A stretch of 33,021 nucleotides of DNA from a virus (taxonomy: Duplodnaviria; Heunggongvirae; Uroviricota; Caudoviricetes): the IMG/VR virus record IMGVR_UViG_2651869781_000018; one strand, 5' to 3'. Position numbers and translations under genes: made by a program. Under the pieces are notes generated by a model. It had not been told where the DNA came from and did not search any database. It was given only the letters and a program-made list of their open reading frames with translations. Below are positions 4,338 to 12,430 of the stretch, piece after piece (the stretch's first letter is position 1; every line of letters begins with the position of its first letter).

Positions 4338-7160
4338 ATGACGGCAGAGTACATCAGGGACTGGCAACAACCGCGCCACGCAGTGGGGCGTGAAGGAACG
4401 GGGATCCCCGCTCCTGAATCCGCGCTTTCCTCCTGGCTGGATGCCTACCGGGTAGAGAACGAGCGCCGCCAGGAAATGGCTGATGCGGCGTTCTCCGCCA
4501 CGCCACTGGGCAACCTGATTAATAAAAGCCTGGACGCACAGGAAAAACAGGACAAAACCATCACACTGGCAGGAGACGCCAGAAAACAGGCACGCGGCGC
4601 GGTGGATGAAGCCATGGCCTCGCTGCGCCTGCTGCCGTCCTATCTGCGCGATCCGCTTATTCGCCACCTCTCCTTCCTGCGCAAAAAACAGGAAGCCGAT
4701 CGCCGGAAAGGCAAAAAGAGCTGGCAGGCGGAACGCTATGCACGCGGAACCCTGCGCAAAATATTCGAACGTCTGGATCGCACTGACGGACACTGGCTGA
4801 CACCGGGTTATCGCTCCCTTGCCGGACGCGAACGCCTGGACGATTTGCTTTACCTGCCGCAGCTCAACAAACACCAGATACAGACGCTGGCCACCATGAC
4901 GGCGGCGATGTTCAGCAGCACCTTCGAAAAACTCTGCGATGGCTTTGGCGCGACCGATGGCGAACTGACCATGGATGTAACGCTGAAGGCGTATCAGATG
5001 CTGGCCCGCATGGCGTTACACCTGCACATCATGCCTCCACATTATGACGCACTGACAACAGATAAAGACCGGAGGAACGAACCGGACACGGAGCTGCTGC
5101 CGGGCGCAATCCTTCGCCTGACCTGTGCGGAATGGTGGAAACGCAAACTGTGGCTGTTACGTTGCGAGTGGAGAGAAGAACAACTCCGCGCCGCCTGTCT
5201 GGTTTCCAGAAAAACATCACCCTATCTGAGCCAGGACGCGTTAAGCGAGTTTCGCGCACAGCGCGAGAAAACACGCGATTTCCTGAAAAGTTTCATGCTG
5301 GAAAACGAAGACGGGTTCACGATTGATCTCGAGACAGTGTATTACGCGGGAGTAAGTAACCCGGTTCACCGTAAGGCAGAAATGATGGCCACCATGAAGG
5401 GGCTGGAACTTCTGGCCGAAGCCCGTGGCGACAAAGCGGTGTTTCTAACTGTCACCTGCCCGTCAAAATACCACGCCACAACAGAGAACGGTCATCCGAA
5501 TCCCAAATGGAACGGGGCCACCATGCGCGACTCCAGCGATTACCTGGTTAACACGTTTTTTGCAGCGGTCCGCAAGAAACTGAACCGCGACGGCCTGCGC
5601 TGGTATGGCATCCGCACGGTGGAGCCTCACCATGACGGCACCGTGCACTGGCATATGATGGTCTTTGCTCATCCGGAAGAAATCGACACCATTGTGTCCC
5701 ACACCCGCGATATTGCCATTCAGGAAGATCGTCACGAGCTGGGTGATGATATTACCCCACGCTTTAAGGCGGAGTACGTCGACGGCTCAAAAGGCACGCC
5801 AACCAGCTACATCGCCACCTACATCGGAAAGAACCTGGACAGCCGCGCCGTGGATGGCATCGACCCGAAAACGGGCAAGCCACGCGTTGACCACGAAACA
5901 GGTAAATCAATGGCCGAGAGCGTGGAGCGAGCCATCGGCTGGGCGCGCCTTCACCGGGTCCGCCAGTTCCAGTTCTTTGGCATCCCCTCCCGTCAGGTGT
6001 GGCGTGAACTCCGCCGCCTTGCCAGCCAGATGGCACGCAACCCGGAAGGCCCGCAACGGCTGAAGGATGACGCAATGGATGCGGTACTCGCTGCCGCTGA
6101 TGCCGGATGTTTTGCCACCTACATTGAAAAACAGGGTGGCGTACTTGTTCCGCGCAAGGACTACCTGATTCGCACAGCCTACGACCTCGCAGATGAGCTG
6201 AACGATTACGGCGAACAGAGTGTACAGATTTACGGGATCTGGTCGCCATTCATCGGGGAATCCTCCCGTGTGTGCACGCATCCGGATAACTGGAAGCTGG
6301 TAAGACGTAAACCGGAAGCGGAAGACAGCGCCCGCGAAAATGGTTTTGACCTTCAGGGCGGCCCTGCCGCCCCTTGGACTCGTGGCAATAACTGTCCCCG
6401 TGTACAGGAAACAGGCAACAACGGGACAGAACAGCCGGAAGAACGGCCAGCACCGTGGCCGCAGCTTCCTGACGGCGTTGAAGTAAATGAATGGATGCGC
6501 TCACTGAAACGGCACGAACGCCGGGCGCTGATGCGTTCGCTTCGTGACAAACAGGCAAAAAACAGCAGCGATGAAATGCAGAACTGGACACAGAGCCGCA
6601 AACAGCAGCGGCCTTTGCCTGATAACCACGAGTTACTCGCTAAAGAATGGCGGGAGTCTGCTGAATCTCTCGGCCTGCATATCGGTGAACAACAGATGCA
6701 GCACCTGTTACGGGGCGGCAGTCTGTACGTTGACGGCAGCATCATTGCACCGCAGGGATTTGAAATTGTACGCAAACCGGATACCCGCCCGGACAGCCGA
6801 ATCACGCAGCTCTGGCAGCGTCTGAGCCGTAATCATGGCGTAAGCAGCACGGAGATCCGCCATAACCCGGTCGCCAGCTATCTGGCACAGCTGGGGGCAT
6901 CAGACCCTGAAGCCGCCGCACGCCTGGCATCCACACTTCAGCAGGACCAGAACACCATGAAAACACCCGTTACCGTGCTTTCTGACATGCTGCGCGCCAT
7001 CCGCGACGCAGAGCACGCACAGAGAATCAGTGAAACCACTGAACGCGCCAGCCGCAAAGCAGACCTGCTGCGGGGTGGCCTGACCAGTGGAAACAAAAAA
7101 CAGACAGAAACGGGACTCACGAATCCCGTAAATGAGCAAAAAACGCGCAGCGATATATGA
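4338..7160 (+). CDS. A: Rolling-circle replication initiator endonuclease, P2 gpA family (HUH relaxase-like), 940 aa
   Basis: HUH metal-binding motif HWHMMVF and paired-tyrosine motif YIATYIGKN; position and size consistent with P2 A but about 180 aa longer than P2 A as remembered, with a charged, Q/R-rich C-terminal extension. Confidence 0.9.
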   Translation: MTAEYIRDWQQPRHAVGREGTGIPAPESALSSWLDAYRVENERRQEMADAAFSATPLGNLINKSLDAQEKQDKTITLAGDARKQARGAVDEAMASLRLLPSYLRDPLIRHLSFLRKKQEADRRKGKKSWQAERYARGTLRKIFERLDRTDGHWLTPGYRSLAGRERLDDLLYLPQLNKHQIQTLATMTAAMFSSTFEKLCDGFGATDGELTMDVTLKAYQMLARMALHLHIMPPHYDALTTDKDRRNEPDTELLPGAILRLTCAEWWKRKLWLLRCEWREEQLRAACLVSRKTSPYLSQDALSEFRAQREKTRDFLKSFMLENEDGFTIDLETVYYAGVSNPVHRKAEMMATMKGLELLAEARGDKAVFLTVTCPSKYHATTENGHPNPKWNGATMRDSSDYLVNTFFAAVRKKLNRDGLRWYGIRTVEPHHDGTVHWHMMVFAHPEEIDTIVSHTRDIAIQEDRHELGDDITPRFKAEYVDGSKGTPTSYIATYIGKNLDSRAVDGIDPKTGKPRVDHETGKSMAESVERAIGWARLHRVRQFQFFGIPSRQVWRELRRLASQMARNPEGPQRLKDDAMDAVLAAADAGCFATYIEKQGGVLVPRKDYLIRTAYDLADELNDYGEQSVQIYGIWSPFIGESSRVCTHPDNWKLVRRKPEAEDSARENGFDLQGGPAAPWTRGNNCPRVQETGNNGTEQPEERPAPWPQLPDGVEVNEWMRSLKRHERRALMRSLRDKQAKNSSDEMQNWTQSRKQQRPLPDNHELLAKEWRESAESLGLHIGEQQMQHLLRGGSLYVDGSIIAPQGFEIVRKPDTRPDSRITQLWQRLSRNHGVSSTEIRHNPVASYLAQLGASDPEAAARLASTLQQDQNTMKTPVTVLSDMLRAIRDAEHAQRISETTERASRKADLLRGGLTSGNKKQTETGLTNPVNEQKTRSDI

Positions 7161-7236: not shown

Positions 7237-8196
7237 ATGAAAATTTACATCGACGACGGCTCCACCAACATCAAGCTGGCATGGACTGAGAACGGCGAAC
7301 GCCGCAACGCCATCAGCCCGAACAGCTTCAAGTCGGAATGGTCTGCGCCGTTCGGTGGCTCGCAGCCTGCTAACTACATGCTTGATGGCGTGCGCTATGG
7401 TTTTGATCCGGTCAGCGATCGCTTTGTCCAGACGACCGACACGCAATACCAGTACAGCGATGTGAATGTCATTGCCATTCATCACGCGCTGGTCAAATCA
7501 GACATCACGCCACAGGAAGTGGATGTGGTTGTTACCCTGCCACTGAGCGAATATTTCGACACAAACGCACAGCCGGACATGGCCAACATCAACCGCAAAA
7601 AAGCGAACGTCATGCGCCCGGTGGAGTACCAGAACGGCGAAGCATTCACTATCCGTAACGTACGGGTTATGCCTGAATCCATTCCGGCTGGCTTTAAAGC
7701 ACTGGCTGACATGAGTCCGTTTGAATCCCTGCTGATTGTGGATTTGGGCGGAACCACGCTGGATGTGGCAAAGGTTCAGGGGCAACTGGCAGGTATCAGC
7801 CAGGTGTTTTGCGATCCACACGTAGGCGTTTCTCTTATGGCCGATGCCGTACTGTCGGTGATGGCCACTAACGGTATGCGCACCAGTCACCACATCGCCA
7901 ATACCATTATCGAACATCGCCATAATGAAGCCTGGCTGCGCCAGCACATCCACAATGACGCGCATTACGCCAGCCTGATGGCGGTTATTCGTGAAAAGGA
8001 AGAAACACTGAAACAACGCGTGATCCGCGCGCTGGCGGTTTTTTCGGGTTACGGGCGGGTGATGGTTGTCGGTGGCGGGGCGGAGATTGTGGCACCCGCT
8101 ATCCGCGAAGCCTGCGGAGTTAATGCGACTTTCATCGCGGACGGGGTGCCACAGTTTGCTCTGGTTAATGGGCTGTACGCAATGGACAAGGAGTAA
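7237..8196 (+). CDS. parM: ParM/StbA-family actin-like segregation ATPase
   Basis: 319 aa; N-terminal phosphate-1 motif IYIDDGSTNIKLAW, then SPNSF, YSDVNVIAIHHAL, PESIPAG, LIVDLGGTTLDVA, VMVVGGGAE and FALVNGLY all align with R1 ParM (StbA) as remembered; RBS AAGGA upstream. Confidence 0.85.
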   Translation: MKIYIDDGSTNIKLAWTENGERRNAISPNSFKSEWSAPFGGSQPANYMLDGVRYGFDPVSDRFVQTTDTQYQYSDVNVIAIHHALVKSDITPQEVDVVVTLPLSEYFDTNAQPDMANINRKKANVMRPVEYQNGEAFTIRNVRVMPESIPAGFKALADMSPFESLLIVDLGGTTLDVAKVQGQLAGISQVFCDPHVGVSLMADAVLSVMATNGMRTSHHIANTIIEHRHNEAWLRQHIHNDAHYASLMAVIREKEETLKQRVIRALAVFSGYGRVMVVGGGAEIVAPAIREACGVNATFIADGVPQFALVNGLYAMDKE

Positions 8197-8200
8197 ACCA

Positions 8201-8512
8201 ATGACGACACCAACCAGACGGATAAGTTTCTATCTGAAGCCCGCCGCCGTCAAGAACGAAGGAGAAGCATGCGCCTGGCTGGACAGCCTTACACCAGAAG
8301 CCCGCAAAAGCGGCCAACGCGTGGCTTTTCTGGCCGGGCTGGCACTTCTGAAGACGAATCCGGCAGAGGCTTACCGACTGGCCGCATGGGCTGATGATGA
8401 GATGTTACCTGTGACACAAATCAGCTCAAAAAAGTTTGAAGCACAGTCTGCACCAGTGGCTAAGATAACCAGCCAGATGGCTGGGAATATCCGGGCGTTA
8501 TTTCCTGAGTAA
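8201..8512 (+). CDS. parR: ParR-like ribbon-helix-helix centromere-binding adaptor
   Basis: 103 aa starting MTTPTRRISFYLKP (ATG 5 nt after the parM stop); ISFYLKP / DSLTPEARKS / AFLAGLAL resemble R1 ParR N-terminal RHH region as remembered. Confidence 0.7.
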   Translation: MTTPTRRISFYLKPAAVKNEGEACAWLDSLTPEARKSGQRVAFLAGLALLKTNPAEAYRLAAWADDEMLPVTQISSKKFEAQSAPVAKITSQMAGNIRALFPE

Positions 8513-8640
8513 AAGCATCTGCGCGAAAAATGCTCACGTTTATAGAGACAGTATCATTCCATTTGGCACACTTACTTCAATAATCGATCTGTTAAACAAA
8601 TAGATTGTCTATTATCTATCGATTAAAACGATCAATTATC

Positions 8641-8668
8641 TTGACAGTAATGTGCCTTTTTGTAAGAT
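8641..8668 (+). promoter_or_regulatory. Candidate sigma70 promoter (TTGACA, 16-bp spacer, TAAGAT), preceded by operator-like dyads (8583..8640) and followed by a dyad overlapping the predicted start site (8673..8702)
   Basis: Perfect -35 hexamer and a 4/6 -10 hexamer at correct spacing read from sequence; flanking ATAGA-N3-TCTAT and CGCAtTGT-N10-ATAATTGCG dyads. Confidence 0.4.
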
Positions 8669-8710
8669 CGTTCGCATTGTGAGCGACAAGATAATTGCGC
8701 GGCATTGTCC

Positions 8711-8859
8711 ATGCAAAACGCCCCAATAGCAGCAACTATTGGGGCGTAAAACTCGGTCGGACTCACTTAACCTGATATGCGTGCCTTCCGAAGTAAATCA
8801 AAATGTGCGTCGTATATTTTATTGCTTACACGCACCTCTGTAAAGGCACGCATATTTTT
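8711..8859 (+). ncRNA. Structured leader or small RNA candidate: 13-codon mini-ORF wrapped in a perfect 12-bp hairpin (8718..8747), then a long nested stem-loop (8777..8853) ending in TTTTT immediately before the RBS of the 89-aa gene
   Basis: Inverted repeats ACGCCCCAATAG/CTATTGGGGCGT and ATGCGTGCCTT/AAGGCACGCAT with inner GTGCGT/ACGCAC, followed by a T5 run; seen in sequence. The function (sRNA, attenuator or terminator of parMR) cannot be decided from sequence. Confidence 0.3.
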
Positions 8860-8876
8860 CCTATGAGGTAAATAAA

Positions 8877-9146
8877 GTGCGGGCTAAAACAGGTATTTGC
8901 AAGAACCCTCATCGTTATAATCCAACATTTCTGTCTCTCCCTGAATATCAAGGACAAGAAGGTCGGCACAAATGCGCTGCCTGTGCTTTTGAGCTAGGCA
9001 TAAAAGATGCGCTTGAAGGACGCGCTATGGCTCAGAATGATTTAGTTTTAGCTAACATTCCGTTTAGCCAGGCTGGAACTGTAAGGCACAGAGATGCCTA
9101 TGAAGCATATGTTCGTGGTTGGCGATTAATAAACAGCAACAATTGA
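8877..9146 (+). CDS. Hypothetical 89-aa protein in the A-to-cos cargo slot (GTG start)
   Basis: GTG start with GAGGT Shine-Dalgarno 7 nt upstream; followed by a canonical hairpin plus T-run terminator; no family recognised. Confidence 0.55.
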   Translation: MRAKTGICKNPHRYNPTFLSLPEYQGQEGRHKCAACAFELGIKDALEGRAMAQNDLVLANIPFSQAGTVRHRDAYEAYVRGWRLINSNN

Positions 9147-9149
9147 TAC

Positions 9150-9178
9150 TTTTGAAGCGCCGATAAGGCGCTTTTTTT
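9150..9178 (+). terminator. Rho-independent terminator (GAAGCGCC-GATA-AGGCGCTT followed by TTTTTTT)
   Basis: GC-rich perfect stem and T7 tract directly after the 89-aa ORF stop. Confidence 0.65.
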
Positions 9179-9179
9179 G

Positions 9180-9632
9180 TTTGCACGATAGTGCACAAGT
9201 TTGCACAATTTTTTTGAACGACTTTTTGTACTTCCGGCCCGCGTGGTGGCTGGATCCGTCAAGGATCCGTACGTGCACAAAAAAACGCGTTTTTTCTGCG
9301 CGCAGGTGACGGGGGAACAGCCCGCGTTTCAGGGGGTAAATAGCATTCCCTGAACGATGTCGCAGAGATACAACAGAATGGCCATATTTCTCACGCTGAG
9401 CATGAAAAAGACGTGAGAGCTTTTGATTTGATGGGGTGAAAGGTAAGGCCGTCAAAATCGCACTGAGACGGCGAGAACATGCAGTCAACGCGGTGGGATT
9501 GCGTAAGAGTCTGACTGTCGATGATGGCAATCAGCAGGAAAGCGTCGTGAAATTATCTGATTGATACAGGAGCTGGAGAGTCGGGGCATAAATTTTTTAT
9601 GCCCCGGCGAAGCAGCAGACAAGCGAAGCGCG
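9180..9632. other. Non-coding region expected to contain cos (the packaging site), by synteny between the A-side cargo and the 3' end of portal gene Q; exact cohesive-end site not assigned
   Basis: Position equivalent to P2 cos; contains TGCAC-rich direct/inverted repeats (9181..9215), the palindrome AAAAAACGCGTTTTTT (about 9283..9298), a G-rich 19-mer GGTGACGGGGGAACAGCCC (about 9307..9325) with partial resemblance to remembered P2/186 cohesive ends, and a hairpin CGGGGCAT..ATGCCCCG (about 9582..9606) downstream of Q. Confidence 0.3.
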
Positions 9633-10679
9633 TCAGGATGTGGGCTGGGTGTCTAACAGTGCGTAAGGGTTAAAGCGGATCACCTCTTCGCCAAGCCAGT
9701 CATTGATGTGCTTCATGGCCTCCATGACGGGCATCAGCTCGTTAATTGCGTAAACCCGCGCGGCCTTCTCCACATCACCAAACGCACTTTTTTCGCCCGG
9801 CATTGCCCCCATCAGTTGCGGCGGAACGCGGTGCGCAGCCAGCACATCATCACGGGATGCCGCCTTAACATTCATGAACTCATCCTTTGCGGTGATCTGC
9901 TGGAACGGCAAAATTTGCACCCCCTCTTTGCCCCCGTTGGGCGCATGAATGAGCACGTTTTTAAACGCACCACCACCACGTGCCCCCTGTAGCGTTTCTT
10001 TCAGGGAGTCCATGCTTTCGCGGTTTACCTGCGCTGCACCGATGTAGATGATGCACCCGGCGTGGGATCCGTTGTCGTAATACAGTTTTCTGAACATGTC
10101 CGCCGAATGAGACAGGCTGGCCGAGAGTAATGCGCCAAGATATTCCGGCATGCCGTAGATTTCCTGGTTAATATCCGGATTCATCAGGTGGCACACTTTG
10201 CCAGGGCGAAACTGGAACGCGTCCTTGCCATCCTGCACATACCACCATGATTCAAGATCGCTTCCGCGTCGCATGTATTTCGCCAGGGCGTGCCGTAATT
10301 TAAGCGGTTCACCGAGCATATTGCTTCGAAGCTCAAGGAATGCGTTACCGAACACAAACCAGTCCAGCGCCAGCACCGAGAAATCCTGCCGGGAAAGCAG
10401 CGGGTGCGGAATATAGCAACCGAGCAATACATTGCGCTTAAAGTAAAGCGCAGACTGATGCCAGGACGTTTGCCGGGCAGCTCTTGCCAGACCGTACCAG
10501 TCCACCGGGGTTTCATACCACCGCCCGTTATCAGCACAGTACATATTGTCCAGCAGGTCATGCCCGGTCAGGCGATAAGGACCATCAAATGTGAATGCAC
10601 TGAGCGATGATTCTTTCCTGAGCGCATCAGCGAGATCAATGCGTGAACTCATGCGCACTTTTTTATTTTTTCTGCTCAT
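9633..10679 (-). CDS. Q: Portal protein (capsid portal vertex), P2 gpQ-like
   Basis: 348 aa; extensive motif match to P2 Q as remembered (NGRWYE, FVFGNAFLE, LMNPDINQE, GMPEYL, KLYYDNG.HAG, HRVPPQLMG, WLG.EVIRF). Confidence 0.9.
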   Translation of the reverse strand: MSRKNKKVRMSSRIDLADALRKESSLSAFTFDGPYRLTGHDLLDNMYCADNGRWYETPVDWYGLARAARQTSWHQSALYFKRNVLLGCYIPHPLLSRQDFSVLALDWFVFGNAFLELRSNMLGEPLKLRHALAKYMRRGSDLESWWYVQDGKDAFQFRPGKVCHLMNPDINQEIYGMPEYLGALLSASLSHSADMFRKLYYDNGSHAGCIIYIGAAQVNRESMDSLKETLQGARGGGAFKNVLIHAPNGGKEGVQILPFQQITAKDEFMNVKAASRDDVLAAHRVPPQLMGAMPGEKSAFGDVEKAARVYAINELMPVMEAMKHINDWLGEEVIRFNPYALLDTQPTS

Positions 10680-12430
10680 CAGAACTCCATAACCGTGAAA
10701 CGCTCGTTTTCTCCTTCGCCGCCAATCGGTTCGTTAATGACAGCAAGCATGGTCGCCCACGCAAGGTCACCGTGGCTGATCCCCCTCGCGCGGTCCGTTT
10801 CGTAAGTGATAAAGCCGCCCGGTGTTTTCACCTTACGCACGGCGTTAAAGGCCGCGACCAGTTCGCGTTCGGCGCGATCGTATTCCCACCGCCCGGCACG
10901 CATTATTTGCAGCATTTTCAGTACCAGCGACCGTTTTGATGACAGCGTGAAGGTGTACGGAATAGCAGCAGGGAAAAACCGTTTCACTATCTGATAAACA
11001 GCCTCCCCGTTCCCGCCCGTCACATCAATGCCGATGTGTTCCACGTTGTAGCGACACGTGAACTCTTCAATGACTCTGGCCTGTTCTTCAAACTCCAGCC
11101 CCTGAACGCGTCGCGTCTCCACCGTTCGAAAACGGCCACCAGGAACAGCCGGAGGAACCACCACGGACACCGCGCCGCTGTCGCCGTTGCCACTGCTGCC
11201 GTTTGCGTCATACCCAATCCATACCGGACGATTTCCCATCGGGCGGGGAGCAAAAGGTTTCCAGTCTTTCCAGTCGTCGTATCCGTCAACGCCGCAGCCA
11301 ATCAGGATATTCAGGTTAAATGCCGATTCCCCTTCGCGGACAAACTCACACATGTAGAGATTGAGGAACTCGTCTTCGGTGTTTTCATCGCGGATTTCGT
11401 CAATATCGGTGTGTTTCCAGCCGTGATTAACCACATCTTCCAGCGTGACAATCTGCCGCCATGTCCGGTCAGGGCAGATAAGTCCGTTATGCAGCGTTTT
11501 CCAGTCCACAGAAAAACGCTGGCGTTTATGCGAGGCCTTTTTCTCGTTCCAGCGGTCGCCGTTCCAGTAGGCGTATGCCTCGTGCGTTTCGGTGGATGGC
11601 GTGGAGAAGTAGGTGCGCCGCAGTCCGCTGAGGGTTGCCATAGCGCCAGCCACCTTGCGCAGTTCAGCAAAGCGACTGACCCAGAAAAATTCATCAAAAT
11701 AAAAATTGCCCGTATAGGACTGTGCCGACGCAGCAGAAGTGCCGAGAAAATGCAGCTCTGCGCCGTTGGAGAGGATGATTTTATCGCCCCCTTTCAGCTC
11801 CACATCAACTTCAGCCGCGGCCTTCTGAATAATGCTTTTAAACTGGAACGCCTGACGACGCGACGCAGACAAAAAAATCTGGTTACGCTGGTAAGGTTGC
11901 GCCACATCGTCACGCAGCGCCATCAGCAGCGCTTCCTGTGCAAAATACCAGGTCGCCCCAATCTGTCGGGATTTCAGGATCATCCTGTTACGTATCCCGG
12001 CTTCCCTGCAAAGGGTCAGGGAGTCAAACCAGCCCCGCTGATGCCACTCCAGCCTGCTGATGATTTTTTCCCGCAGTGCGGCAATCTGTTCCGGCGTGAA
12101 ATGATTTTTGAGTTTTTTCGCCCGGCCTTTCTTTCCTGTGACCGTCGCATCCGGCTGGCCATCATGCAGTTTTTTAAGCTGCCGGGTCAGCAGGTCTATT
12201 TCCTTAAAGTCACCACCTGTTTTATTCTGTTTTTCAGTAAGCTGGATGAGGCGCGCATCGATGGACTGCGTGACACGCTGCACGGGTGGCGTTTCATCCC
12301 ACTGGTCACGTTTTTTCCACGCATAAATCGTGTTCGGGTTTATTCCCATCAGACGTGATATTTCTGCGGGCGGATAACCCTGCCAGTAAAGTTGCCGCGC
12401 ACGCTGGCGCACAAAAGCGTCCTGAATCAT
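10679..12430 (-). CDS. P: Terminase large subunit (ATPase), P2 gpP-like
   Basis: 583 aa, adjacent to and co-directional with Q with 1-nt stop/start overlap; size and position match P2 P. Confidence 0.9.
   Translation of the reverse strand: MIQDAFVRQRARQLYWQGYPPAEISRLMGINPNTIYAWKKRDQWDETPPVQRVTQSIDARLIQLTEKQNKTGGDFKEIDLLTRQLKKLHDGQPDATVTGKKGRAKKLKNHFTPEQIAALREKIISRLEWHQRGWFDSLTLCREAGIRNRMILKSRQIGATWYFAQEALLMALRDDVAQPYQRNQIFLSASRRQAFQFKSIIQKAAAEVDVELKGGDKIILSNGAELHFLGTSAASAQSYTGNFYFDEFFWVSRFAELRKVAGAMATLSGLRRTYFSTPSTETHEAYAYWNGDRWNEKKASHKRQRFSVDWKTLHNGLICPDRTWRQIVTLEDVVNHGWKHTDIDEIRDENTEDEFLNLYMCEFVREGESAFNLNILIGCGVDGYDDWKDWKPFAPRPMGNRPVWIGYDANGSSGNGDSGAVSVVVPPAVPGGRFRTVETRRVQGLEFEEQARVIEEFTCRYNVEHIGIDVTGGNGEAVYQIVKRFFPAAIPYTFTLSSKRSLVLKMLQIMRAGRWEYDRAERELVAAFNAVRKVKTPGGFITYETDRARGISHGDLAWATMLAVINEPIGGEGENERFTVMEF

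Follow-up and report, generated by a model that had tools for sequence, protein, structure and literature searches.

What is the function of a small gene that lies in the cargo slot of a P2-like prophage, carries its own ribosome-binding site and terminator, and could not be placed by eye in any family? The question is raised by the 33,021-nucleotide viral sequence IMGVR_UViG_2651869781_000018 (the window, meaning the whole of this stretch), which is a complete P2-like prophage with 98% identity over the region to Escherichia phage 520873 (Peduoviridae, Xuanwuvirus), and in which an open reading frame (ORF) for an 89-amino acid protein occupies positions 8877-9146. A first-pass annotation made from the sequence alone had described the gene as a candidate moron, possibly a Tum-like antirepressor under SOS control, an anti-defence gene or a defence accessory, and had suggested profile searches and structure prediction as checks. 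The reading favoured in the present work, to which a probability of roughly 40% is assigned, is that the protein is a DNA-reading module that has been orphaned, that most likely recognises non-methylated GATC, and that mobile elements of hosts with the Dam methyltransferase (Dam+ hosts) use for exclusion or addiction.

The ORF is a real gene and not a chance reading frame. This conclusion follows from its full-length match to phrog_3941, a PHROGs family of unknown function (E 9.1e-49, residues 4-89 aligned with positions 1-86 of the 86-position profile), from the large size of the family, from residues that are invariant within it, from the intact state of the ORF in 29 of 29 near-identical viral contigs, where N86H is the sole substitution, and from its recurrence in E. 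coli, since a 688-bp region of this locus is found in 166 of 5426 complete genomes (about 3%) and is chromosomal in every one. About half of the E. coli RefSeq complete genomes listed have no annotation there, so the ORF is often overlooked despite its conservation across phyla. The GTG start, ribosome-binding site and canonical terminator reported by the first-pass annotation are all present (Table 1).

A word-indexed first search returned just two near-identical matches, and the family was reached by exhaustive and profile searches: exhaustive searching with phmmer gave 173 clusters at 50% identity, and the profile gave 1600 clusters at 90% identity, none of which has an informative name or a Pfam domain. 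Sequence searches of Pfam, NCBIfam, PADLOC and the PDB, with the single protein as well as the profile, gave no usable match, and in PADLOC-DB v2 no family matched the 89-amino acid protein at E <= 10. The AlphaFold model is confident (predicted local distance difference test score, pLDDT, 88) and depicts a helical, two-module fold, for which there is no structural neighbour and no solved relative. The suggested checks therefore bear out the inability to place the gene by eye, phrog_3941 being its sole PHROG match. A kinship with Ribosome modulation factor (PF04957), to which 10 of 47 members match weakly, is ruled out by an hhalign probability of 3%. No description of phrog_3941-type proteins was found in the literature; the family is large and unstudied.

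Residue conservation was assessed in two alignments, one of 47 and one of 84 relatives. Neither shows any variation at C8 and H12; C33 and C36 are likewise constant among the 84 sequences and at least 90% conserved among the 47, and Q25, R30, H31, A37 and G41 are invariant or nearly so. Because this last set recurs 40 residues further on, as S64/Q65, R70, H71, A77 and G81, the protein reads as two tandem modules of about 40 residues each. Module 1 holds a putative zinc site of the form C-x3-H...C-x2-C (C8/H12/C33/C36) and a Q25...R30-H31 motif; module 2 has lost the cysteines and keeps S64-Q65...R70-H71. All four conserved candidate metal ligands of the C-x3-H...C-x2-C module are present in the window protein, which would thus be expected to bind zinc, and larger or fused relatives carry two complete modules in which the cysteine-histidine pattern is present twice. 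Seventeen residues are invariant across phyla at an overall identity of about 45%, and since these include the candidate zinc ligands as well as Q25/R30/H31 and S64/Q65/R70/H71, the family probably has one common ligand. The protein is basic (12 Lys/Arg and 8 Asp/Glu, net charge about +4), and neither Pfam nor the predicted fold indicates a helix-turn-helix (HTH) of the Xre type or any other.

Genomic context was examined in a sample of 80 genome loci, 80 viral loci and several metagenome loci, which reduce to 92 loci that are non-redundant at 90% protein identity; neighbours within 6 kb were clustered without prior labels, and names were taken from precomputed Pfam labels. The family gene is accompanied by a D12 Dam-type methyltransferase in 30 of these loci, an N6_N4 (DpnA-like) methyltransferase in 17, a DpnII nuclease in 16, a 162-amino acid PDDEXK_11 nuclease in 10, a DUF6996/6997/7226 protein in seven, and in six a 178-amino acid protein whose weak likeness to PDDEXK_11 scores just below the curated Pfam cut-off. 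In 36 of the 92 loci it lies inside or beside a Dam-type restriction-modification cassette, nearly always on the same strand and in first, middle or last place, and these loci are spread over Bacteroidota, Spirochaetota, Campylobacterota, Actinobacteria, Ignavibacteria, Deltaproteobacteria and other groups. What the cassettes with three unrelated nuclease families have in common is the Dam-type methyltransferase, and the nuclease differs from cassette to cassette. Among 57 multidomain relatives, 39 are nuclease fusions, with NOV_C in 24 and HNH or HNH_2 in 15; DndB accounts for three and WYL for one (P0021). The nuclease fusions that were inspected have two full modules N-terminal to the nuclease, and all four NOV_C fusions that were looked up, by profile search and in their contigs, lie in Dam cassettes, three of them with DpnII. 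The suggestion of a defence accessory is supported by these observations in part only, in that restriction-modification cassettes and nuclease fusions are the home of the family.

The ancestral role of the protein would accordingly be sought in Dam-type (GATC-methylating) restriction-modification systems, where it may have served as a two-module unit beside, or fused to, a minimal PD-(D/E)xK or HNH nuclease, and where the pseudo-symmetric pair of Q...RH motifs would read GATC by its methylation state, most likely by binding the unmethylated form. Such reading would account for the fact that a Dam methyltransferase, whether neighbouring or chromosomal in the host, is always found together with the family. 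Among the nearest known concepts are the DpnI-type winged-helix sensors of N6-methyladenine, which are fused to PD-(D/E)xK, HNH and other nucleases (PMC11037411; DpnI structure 4esj). Both combine a small autonomous domain, in the present family a putative reader, with a minimal nuclease core, both belong to the biology of Dam-site methylation, and both occur in fused and stand-alone forms; the phrog_3941-type protein is, however, not a winged helix but a putative C-H-C-C zinc-binding helical unit of two modules that has no solved neighbour. Its polarity would be opposite to that of DpnI, because fusions of the module to a nuclease which stand beside a Dam methyltransferase must spare methylated GATC.

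The same contexts bear on a different explanation, according to which the family protein is a controller-type transcription regulator, like the C proteins of restriction-modification systems or BrxR/CapW, that binds an operator in order to time or repress adjacent restriction or defence genes. The solo phage copy would then be autoregulated and would silence or mis-time resident or incoming operons that are under control of the same family, which amounts to anti-defence or "mutual exclusion" by regulator mimicry. Like the genes of those regulators, the family gene is small and stands within or at the head of restriction-modification and defence operons, often in first place before non-homologous partners (DUF4062, DUF2971, a nucleotide cyclase, an AAA_21/AAA_15 ATPase, a type IIG methyltransferase). 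The WYL-module fusion, the palindrome just 5' of the window gene's own promoter, and the small, basic character of the protein with its putative zinc site all fit a regulator, and phage DNA-binding proteins that silence defence operons have a precedent in the CasPRs (bioRxiv 10.64898/2026.02.23.707548), which are a different family. A regulator must be kept in consideration because the solo copies that precede unrelated defence-like genes, or a type IIG methyltransferase, fit it at least as well as they fit a methylation reader. Nevertheless, the polar residues that are the putative DNA contacts are invariant across phyla and systems, which would not be expected if each system had its own operator; nuclease fusions, not regulators, dominate the multidomain relatives; a separate HTH gene is already present in some cassettes (L176, L179); the place of the family gene in the cassette varies; the protein has no HTH or winged HTH, no Pfam match and no solved neighbour for its predicted fold; and the window copy has no adjacent target gene. 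A controller is consequently judged to be unlikely, but it is an alternative of some weight.

Three arrangements found in the course of this comparison are recorded here as observations in their own right. A recurrent island of Bacteroidota (L176 1944-7840; L177 3547-8704; also L019 and L074) comprises, after an HTH gene in some copies, Dam, DpnII, a protein of about 170 amino acids, a DndB-like protein, a DpnA-like methyltransferase and a two-module NOV_C nuclease. The protein of about 170 amino acids has no Pfam match and reads as a multi-pass membrane protein in the L074 copy, and the DndB-like protein occurs with or without a C-terminal module, so that one operon can hold two module-bearing proteins; the island looks like an undescribed composite GATC defence system. 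A three-gene unit of a Dam-type methyltransferase, the 162-amino acid PDDEXK_11 nuclease and the small module is found in Flavobacteria, Chitinophagaceae, Campylobacter, Gallionella and Binataceae (L025, L029, L031, L045, L047, L052, L087, L088 and L093), and could represent a restriction enzyme split into parts, in which the reader is a subunit of its own. In enterobacterial and Vibrio-type islands (L024 8308-9300; L083 8309-9853; L069 8272-8991), DUF4062, an AAA_21/AAA_15 ATPase or a nucleotide cyclase follows the family gene by 10-75 bp, and these pairs may be further two-gene systems that use the module.

The distribution of solo copies, which stand apart from any such cassette, supplies the main argument for the nature of the ligand. 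The Enterobacterales, Pasteurellales, Vibrionales, Alteromonadales and Orbales are lineages in which a chromosomal orphan Dam is accompanied by SeqA and MutH, and in them 20 of 20 non-redundant genome loci are solo, as against 34 of 47 loci that are cassette-linked in other taxa (Fisher p = 1e-8). Since the module is found in the company of a Dam, encoded by a neighbouring gene or by the host, its ligand is probably tied to GATC methylation. In the window, no reading frame encodes Dam, DpnII, an N6_N4 methyltransferase, PDDEXK_11, NOV_C or a DUF699x protein, so that the window gene would be an orphan of a Dam/DpnII-type system and not a member of a cassette. The same gene, with its own control region and terminator, recurs elsewhere: its place is between cI and N in the Salmonella P22-like phage BIS08P22, and in Providencia phage PSTCR7lys it stands, on the opposite strand, between Q and the lysis genes. 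It adjoins a CI-type repressor in eight loci, and it is also found on plasmids and genomic islands. The interval between gpA and gpQ is a documented cargo hotspot of P2-like phages (Rousset 2022, PMC9122126). The description of the gene as a moron in the slot between gene A and cos consequently holds, given that the gene, its control region and its terminator travel together to other moron slots. Its location between the par cassette and cos can be affirmed on the par side, where ParM and ParR occupy 7237-8512; the P2 cos 19-mer was not found in the window, and the position next to cos is therefore assigned by synteny only.

This distribution also bears on the leading idea of the first-pass annotation, namely that the protein is a Tum-like antirepressor or some other switch protein acting on the prophage's own immunity repressor. 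The position equals that of tum in phage 186, the family gene adjoins the CI repressor in lambdoid phages, and ant/sar of P22 is a precedent for an antirepressor under antisense control. The control region nevertheless has no LexA box, as the annotation had itself noted (0 matches to CTGT-N8-ACAG in 8513-8876 with one mismatch allowed), and no annotated antirepressor family of Pfam or PHROG was matched, Tum itself not having been compared directly. Furthermore, almost the same protein (45-60% identity) is employed by phages whose repressors are unrelated, by plasmids and islands, and by restriction-modification cassettes, the last in phyla that lack such phages, and the links to methyltransferases and nucleases, like the copies on non-phage islands, are a poor fit for an antirepressor. 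The idea is disfavoured, and the probability left to it is close to negligible.

How the gene is expressed is suggested by a 360-bp control region, which the first-pass annotation had overlooked together with its predicted antisense small RNA (sRNA), its GATC cluster, and the putative zinc site and internal repeat of the protein. The distal promoter P(+) is the only plus-strand promoter-like site in 8400-9500, and it places the predicted start of the mRNA near 8675. The palindrome just 5' of it recurs in a divergent P2-like locus (L132) and is a possible operator. The sequence 8675-8930, which includes the leader, folds with -75.2 kcal/mol (z = -3.5), and none of 200 shuffled sequences is as stable. 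In this fold CCUCAU at 8907-8912 is the pairing partner of AUGAGG in the Shine-Dalgarno region, and the perfect inverted repeat I3 forms a long-range helix that is paired in the minimum-free-energy structure. A local hairpin around the Shine-Dalgarno sequence is clear in L132 (z = -5.3), present in L168 and not significant in the window (z = -0.15), where sequestration is thus suggestive.

Against the leader runs a predicted cis-antisense sRNA of about 97 nt, which would be transcribed from the convergent promoter P(-) and would be fully complementary to the mRNA, provided that the mRNA starts at P(+). A minus-strand -35 element TTTAC[A/T] about 35 nt from the start codon occurs in 28 of 55 non-redundant solo copies, the window copy among them, in none of 36 cassette-linked copies and in 1.3% of random windows, and CTTTACA is invariant in alignment A5. 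In 11 lambdoid loci the hairpin homologous to the sRNA terminator covaries: substitutions on both sides are seen in nine of its 11 pairs, and the paired cells amount to 89%, a level reached by none of 500 shuffles, with slid controls at 31-68%. At least four groups, without sequence similarity to one another, can be distinguished among the sequences upstream of solo copies, namely the window with L132; L133-139, L162 and phage PSTCR7lys; L016, L150 and L154; and the lambdoid group with phage BIS08P22. All share one architecture, which consists of a plus-strand promoter about 200 nt upstream, a structured leader, a GC-rich hairpin and a convergent minus-strand TTTACA promoter. The same layout is seen in a fifth set, from Klebsiella, Citrobacter and Buttiauxella islands, in which the equivalent RNA ends in a canonical stem and seven U. 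Taken together, these features and the covariation of the hairpin lead to the prediction of a cis-antisense sRNA of 75-105 nt.

Rfam gives nothing at its gathering thresholds in the window, where the sub-threshold matches (ctRNA_pGA1, sar, Spot 42) lie only on or across the terminator hairpin, and nothing upstream of the family gene in seven related loci. Other readings of the region were set aside. The repeats of 8580-8700 are not likely to be the ParMR centromere parC, since the same palindrome and promoter accompany the gene in L132 and since, in the sampled neighbourhoods, equivalent promoters occur in phages that have no recurrent ParM/ParR neighbour. A hidden type I toxin is implausible both as the 12-codon leader ORF across the hairpin, the equivalent lambdoid stretch having no ATG when read by eye, and as the 44-amino acid minus-strand ORF at 8632-8766, whose reading frame extends past the sRNA terminator.

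The GATC sequence itself is enriched 2.3-fold in the 250 bp upstream of solo copies (2.04 versus 0.89 per 250 bp). The sequence-unrelated solo groups have three to five sites each (Poisson p per group from 8e-5 to 0.06), located at or beside promoter hexamers, and in three groups other than that of the window the distal promoters are likewise flanked or overlapped by GATC. The window has sites at 8586 and 8630, in the arms of the palindrome, and at 8666, across the -10 element of P(+). Because of the convergent promoters, the GATC in the -10 element, the antisense RNA and the partly occluded Shine-Dalgarno sequence, the protein is expected to be kept off in the lysogen and freed on under-methylation or decay of the sRNA.

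According to the reading favoured here, the prophage would have captured the module as a self-contained moron that is normally kept off, first by the GATC which would make the mRNA promoter Dam-sensitive, like pIN of IS10, and second by the sRNA, which would oppose the structured leader of about 200 nt from the near-consensus P(-). The protein would be made only when the cassette is under-methylated or the sRNA decays, and the occasions for this could be replication after induction, entry into a new cell, or the shut-off of host transcription by an infecting phage. Once released, it would bind non-methylated GATC DNA and bring about exclusion or addiction and not antirepression.

If the protein does bind un- or hemimethylated GATC, it could alternatively be a protective, anti-restriction factor, which coats such sites and shields them from enzymes of the DpnII/MboI/Sau3AI type, or from MutH, until Dam has methylated them. 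A factor of this kind would allow a cassette to be safely established in a new host, and on a phage or plasmid it would protect DNA that is freshly replicated or newly entered. The association of the family with the methyltransferase and its presumed site, instead of with any single nuclease family, would be accounted for, as would expression on under-methylated DNA, which is what GATC over the -10 element predicts; entry-proximal or accessory positions on mobile elements are also consistent with shielding, and the restriction-alleviation functions, such as Ral of lambda, are comparable. However, fusion of the same module to nucleases is the reverse of protection, a protein made after DNA entry would come too late for that DNA, and phage DNA from a Dam+ host is already largely methylated. 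Heavy antisense repression would be unusual for an anti-restriction gene, and the protein, with its positive net charge and no strongly acidic character, is unlike the DNA-mimic anti-restriction proteins Ocr and ArdA. Shielding is therefore considered improbable.

Comparison with known systems shows which parts of the proposed cassette are familiar. In the control of IS10 transposase, the Dam-sensitive promoter pIN has GATC in its -10 element and is opposed by the antisense RNA-OUT from the convergent pOUT, a logic that limits expression to hemimethylated, just-replicated DNA. The window locus has the same convergent promoters, the same GATC over the -10 element of the mRNA promoter and a predicted antisense RNA on the 5' end of the mRNA; it differs in that its cargo is a putative DNA reader and not a transposase, in that there is no sequence kinship, and in that its Dam dependence is suggested by GATC positions only. 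Type I toxin-antitoxin systems (hok/sok, symE/symR and ralR/ralA; PMC4041452, PMC2887945) have in common with it a small protein gene, a long structured leader, an opposing cis sRNA of about 75-105 nt, a strong promoter and an intrinsic terminator, although the antisense sRNA gene with its own promoter and terminator overlapping the mRNA is, in the present case, a feature recognised in silico only. Such systems also reside on prophages, plasmids and islands, and the window locus stands by ParMR as hok/sok stands by parMRC on plasmid R1. Unlike a hydrophobic membrane peptide, however, the 89-amino acid protein is predicted to be soluble and helical with no hydrophobic segment; its homologues occur in restriction-modification operons without an sRNA, and there is no Rfam match. 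Among the non-classical type I members, SymE and RalR are soluble as well. The cargo of the P2 gpA-gpQ hotspot (old, tin, retrons, PARIS; PMC9122126, PMC13586616) shares the locus, a variable slot after frequent StbA and Plasmid_stab_B, but the window gene has no PADLOC match and is a lone gene with a predicted RNA partner. By sequence and by predicted fold, the gene stands outside the DpnI-type, type I toxin-antitoxin, IS10 and C-protein kinds and is a member only of phrog_3941.

Several points weigh against the favoured reading. The biochemical model rests on inference throughout, the transcripts, the DNA binding and the GATC specificity being predictions, and toxicity is suggested solely by the type-I-like layout of the locus, whose protein, in contrast to classical type I toxins, is basic and soluble. 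The D12 methyltransferases are not all specific for GATC; only the 16 DpnII loci point firmly to this site. One relative (L048) precedes a non-Dam, type IIG-like methyltransferase, and several solo copies precede unrelated defence-like genes (DUF4062, DUF2971, an AAA_21 ATPase, a nucleotide cyclase). Common descent of the enterobacterial mobile elements confounds the phyletic test, and the classing of Dam clades was taken from background knowledge. By itself, the GATC cluster of the window (three sites within 81 bp) does not reach significance (p about 0.13 when 250 bp are tested), and P(-) of the window has no GATC; elsewhere, cassette-linked copies show no upstream cluster (0.35 versus 0.62 per 250 bp), and the plasmid copies L180-L182 lack the sRNA layout. 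There is a real chance that the family represents a new methylation-reader fold. The proposal can be put in a fuller form, in which the family is an unrecognised reader of non-methylated GATC with a new zinc-binding fold, applying the principle "self = Dam-methylated" in three settings (split or fused restriction nucleases of many phyla, the six-gene Bacteroidota GATC island, and nuclease-free solo cassettes in temperate phages of Dam+ enterobacteria), and in which the phage cassette is a methylation- and antisense-gated, type-I-like exclusion or addiction module, freed by a disturbance of cellular methylation or transcription such as an infecting phage may cause, that blocks under-methylated foreign or replicating DNA by occupancy and not by cutting; as a single joint claim this is improbable.

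Table 1. Features of the prophage locus, with positions in the window
Feature	Position	Strand	Remarks
Imperfect palindrome (I1)	8580-8639		26+26 nt, 73% complementary; just 5' of distal promoter; one GATC per arm
Distal sigma-70-like promoter P(+)	8641-8668	+	TTGACA, 16-nt spacer, TAAGAT; 10/12 consensus; GATC 8666-8669 overlaps -10
Structured 5' leader of ORF mRNA (predicted, ~200 nt)	8675-8876	+	
Cis-antisense sRNA (predicted, ~97 nt)	8712-8809	-	Fully complementary to mRNA leader; fold z = -3.8
sRNA terminator hairpin	8718-8747	-	GC-rich; perfect 12-bp inverted repeat I4, ACGCCCCAATAG/CTATTGGGGCGT, then GTTTTG
Perfect 13-bp inverted repeat (I3)	8775-8787 and 8843-8855		ATATGCGTGCCTT / AAGGCACGCATAT; 100% complementary; brackets sRNA promoter/start
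Convergent promoter P(-)	8816-8844	-	TTTACA 8844-8839, 17-nt spacer, TAAAAT 8821-8816; 10/12 consensus
Shine-Dalgarno GAGGT	8865-8869	+	7 nt 5' of GTG; read from sequence
ORF for 89-amino acid protein	8877-9146	+	GTG start, first start codon past in-frame stop; intact
Intrinsic terminator of ORF	9154-9184	+	Stem-loop 9154-9174, 8 pairs (5 G-C), then T-rich tail TTTTGTTTGC
Replication gene A	4338-7160		
ParM	7237-8196		StbA_N 1e-80, ParM_N 3e-68 (Pfam)
ParR	8201-8512		Plasmid_stab_B 1e-23 (Pfam)
Portal gene	9633-10679	-	Named via 98%-identical Escherichia phage 520873
Terminase gene	10679-12430	-	Named via 98%-identical Escherichia phage 520873

Further observations concern the surroundings of the gene and its relatives. 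ParR is separated from the ORF by a 364-bp spacer. The ParM/ParR (StbA/StbB) partition cassette is complete, and the prophage that holds it has a chromosomal location in each of the 166 E. coli genomes bearing the region; no parC-like iterons were identified upstream of parM, where the gap to gene A is only 77 bp. A partition system is present in the gpA-gpQ interval of about one quarter of P2-like phages, for which plasmid maintenance has been suggested (Rousset 2022, PMC9122126). Downstream of the ORF, the presumed cos-proximal region 9157-9301 contains long-range inverted repeats (9157-9178/9280-9301 and 9174-9187/9272-9285), a direct repeat GTTTGCAC(G/A)AT at 9179 and 9199, and two GGATCC sequences 11 bp apart (GATC at 9253 and 9264). 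In Escherichia phage 503458 (NC_049341, 24996-25169), which is closely related, the match to the protein is split in two (86% identity over residues 9-66), which suggests that the gene is frameshifted or decayed in at least one lineage. The related P2-like prophage L132 has at 2611-2808 a match to Rfam isrK (67 bits) directly followed by C4 antisense RNA (85 bits), so that an immunity element of the P1/P7 c4 type is housed in a P2-like genome.

If the favoured reading is correct, a family of about 1600 clusters that is at present without annotation would become a new DNA-methylation reader domain and would supply a missing component of many Dam/DpnII-type systems, including split enzymes in which a minimal nuclease works with a separate reader. 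A lone reader under RNA and epigenetic control would in that case give prophages and plasmids of E. coli, Salmonella, Klebsiella and their relatives access to the Dam mark of the host, and the cassette would be a mechanistically new entry among the cargo of the P2 defence hotspot, about one fifth of whose instances hold only genes of unknown function (PMC13586616). The module would also offer a compact probe of GATC or N6-methyladenine state for biotechnology, and an easily tested example of how parts of restriction systems are recycled as phage morons. Even if the GATC idea is put aside, the conserved predicted antisense sRNA would be a new regulatory RNA, encoded in a region that is present in about 3% of complete E. 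coli genomes.

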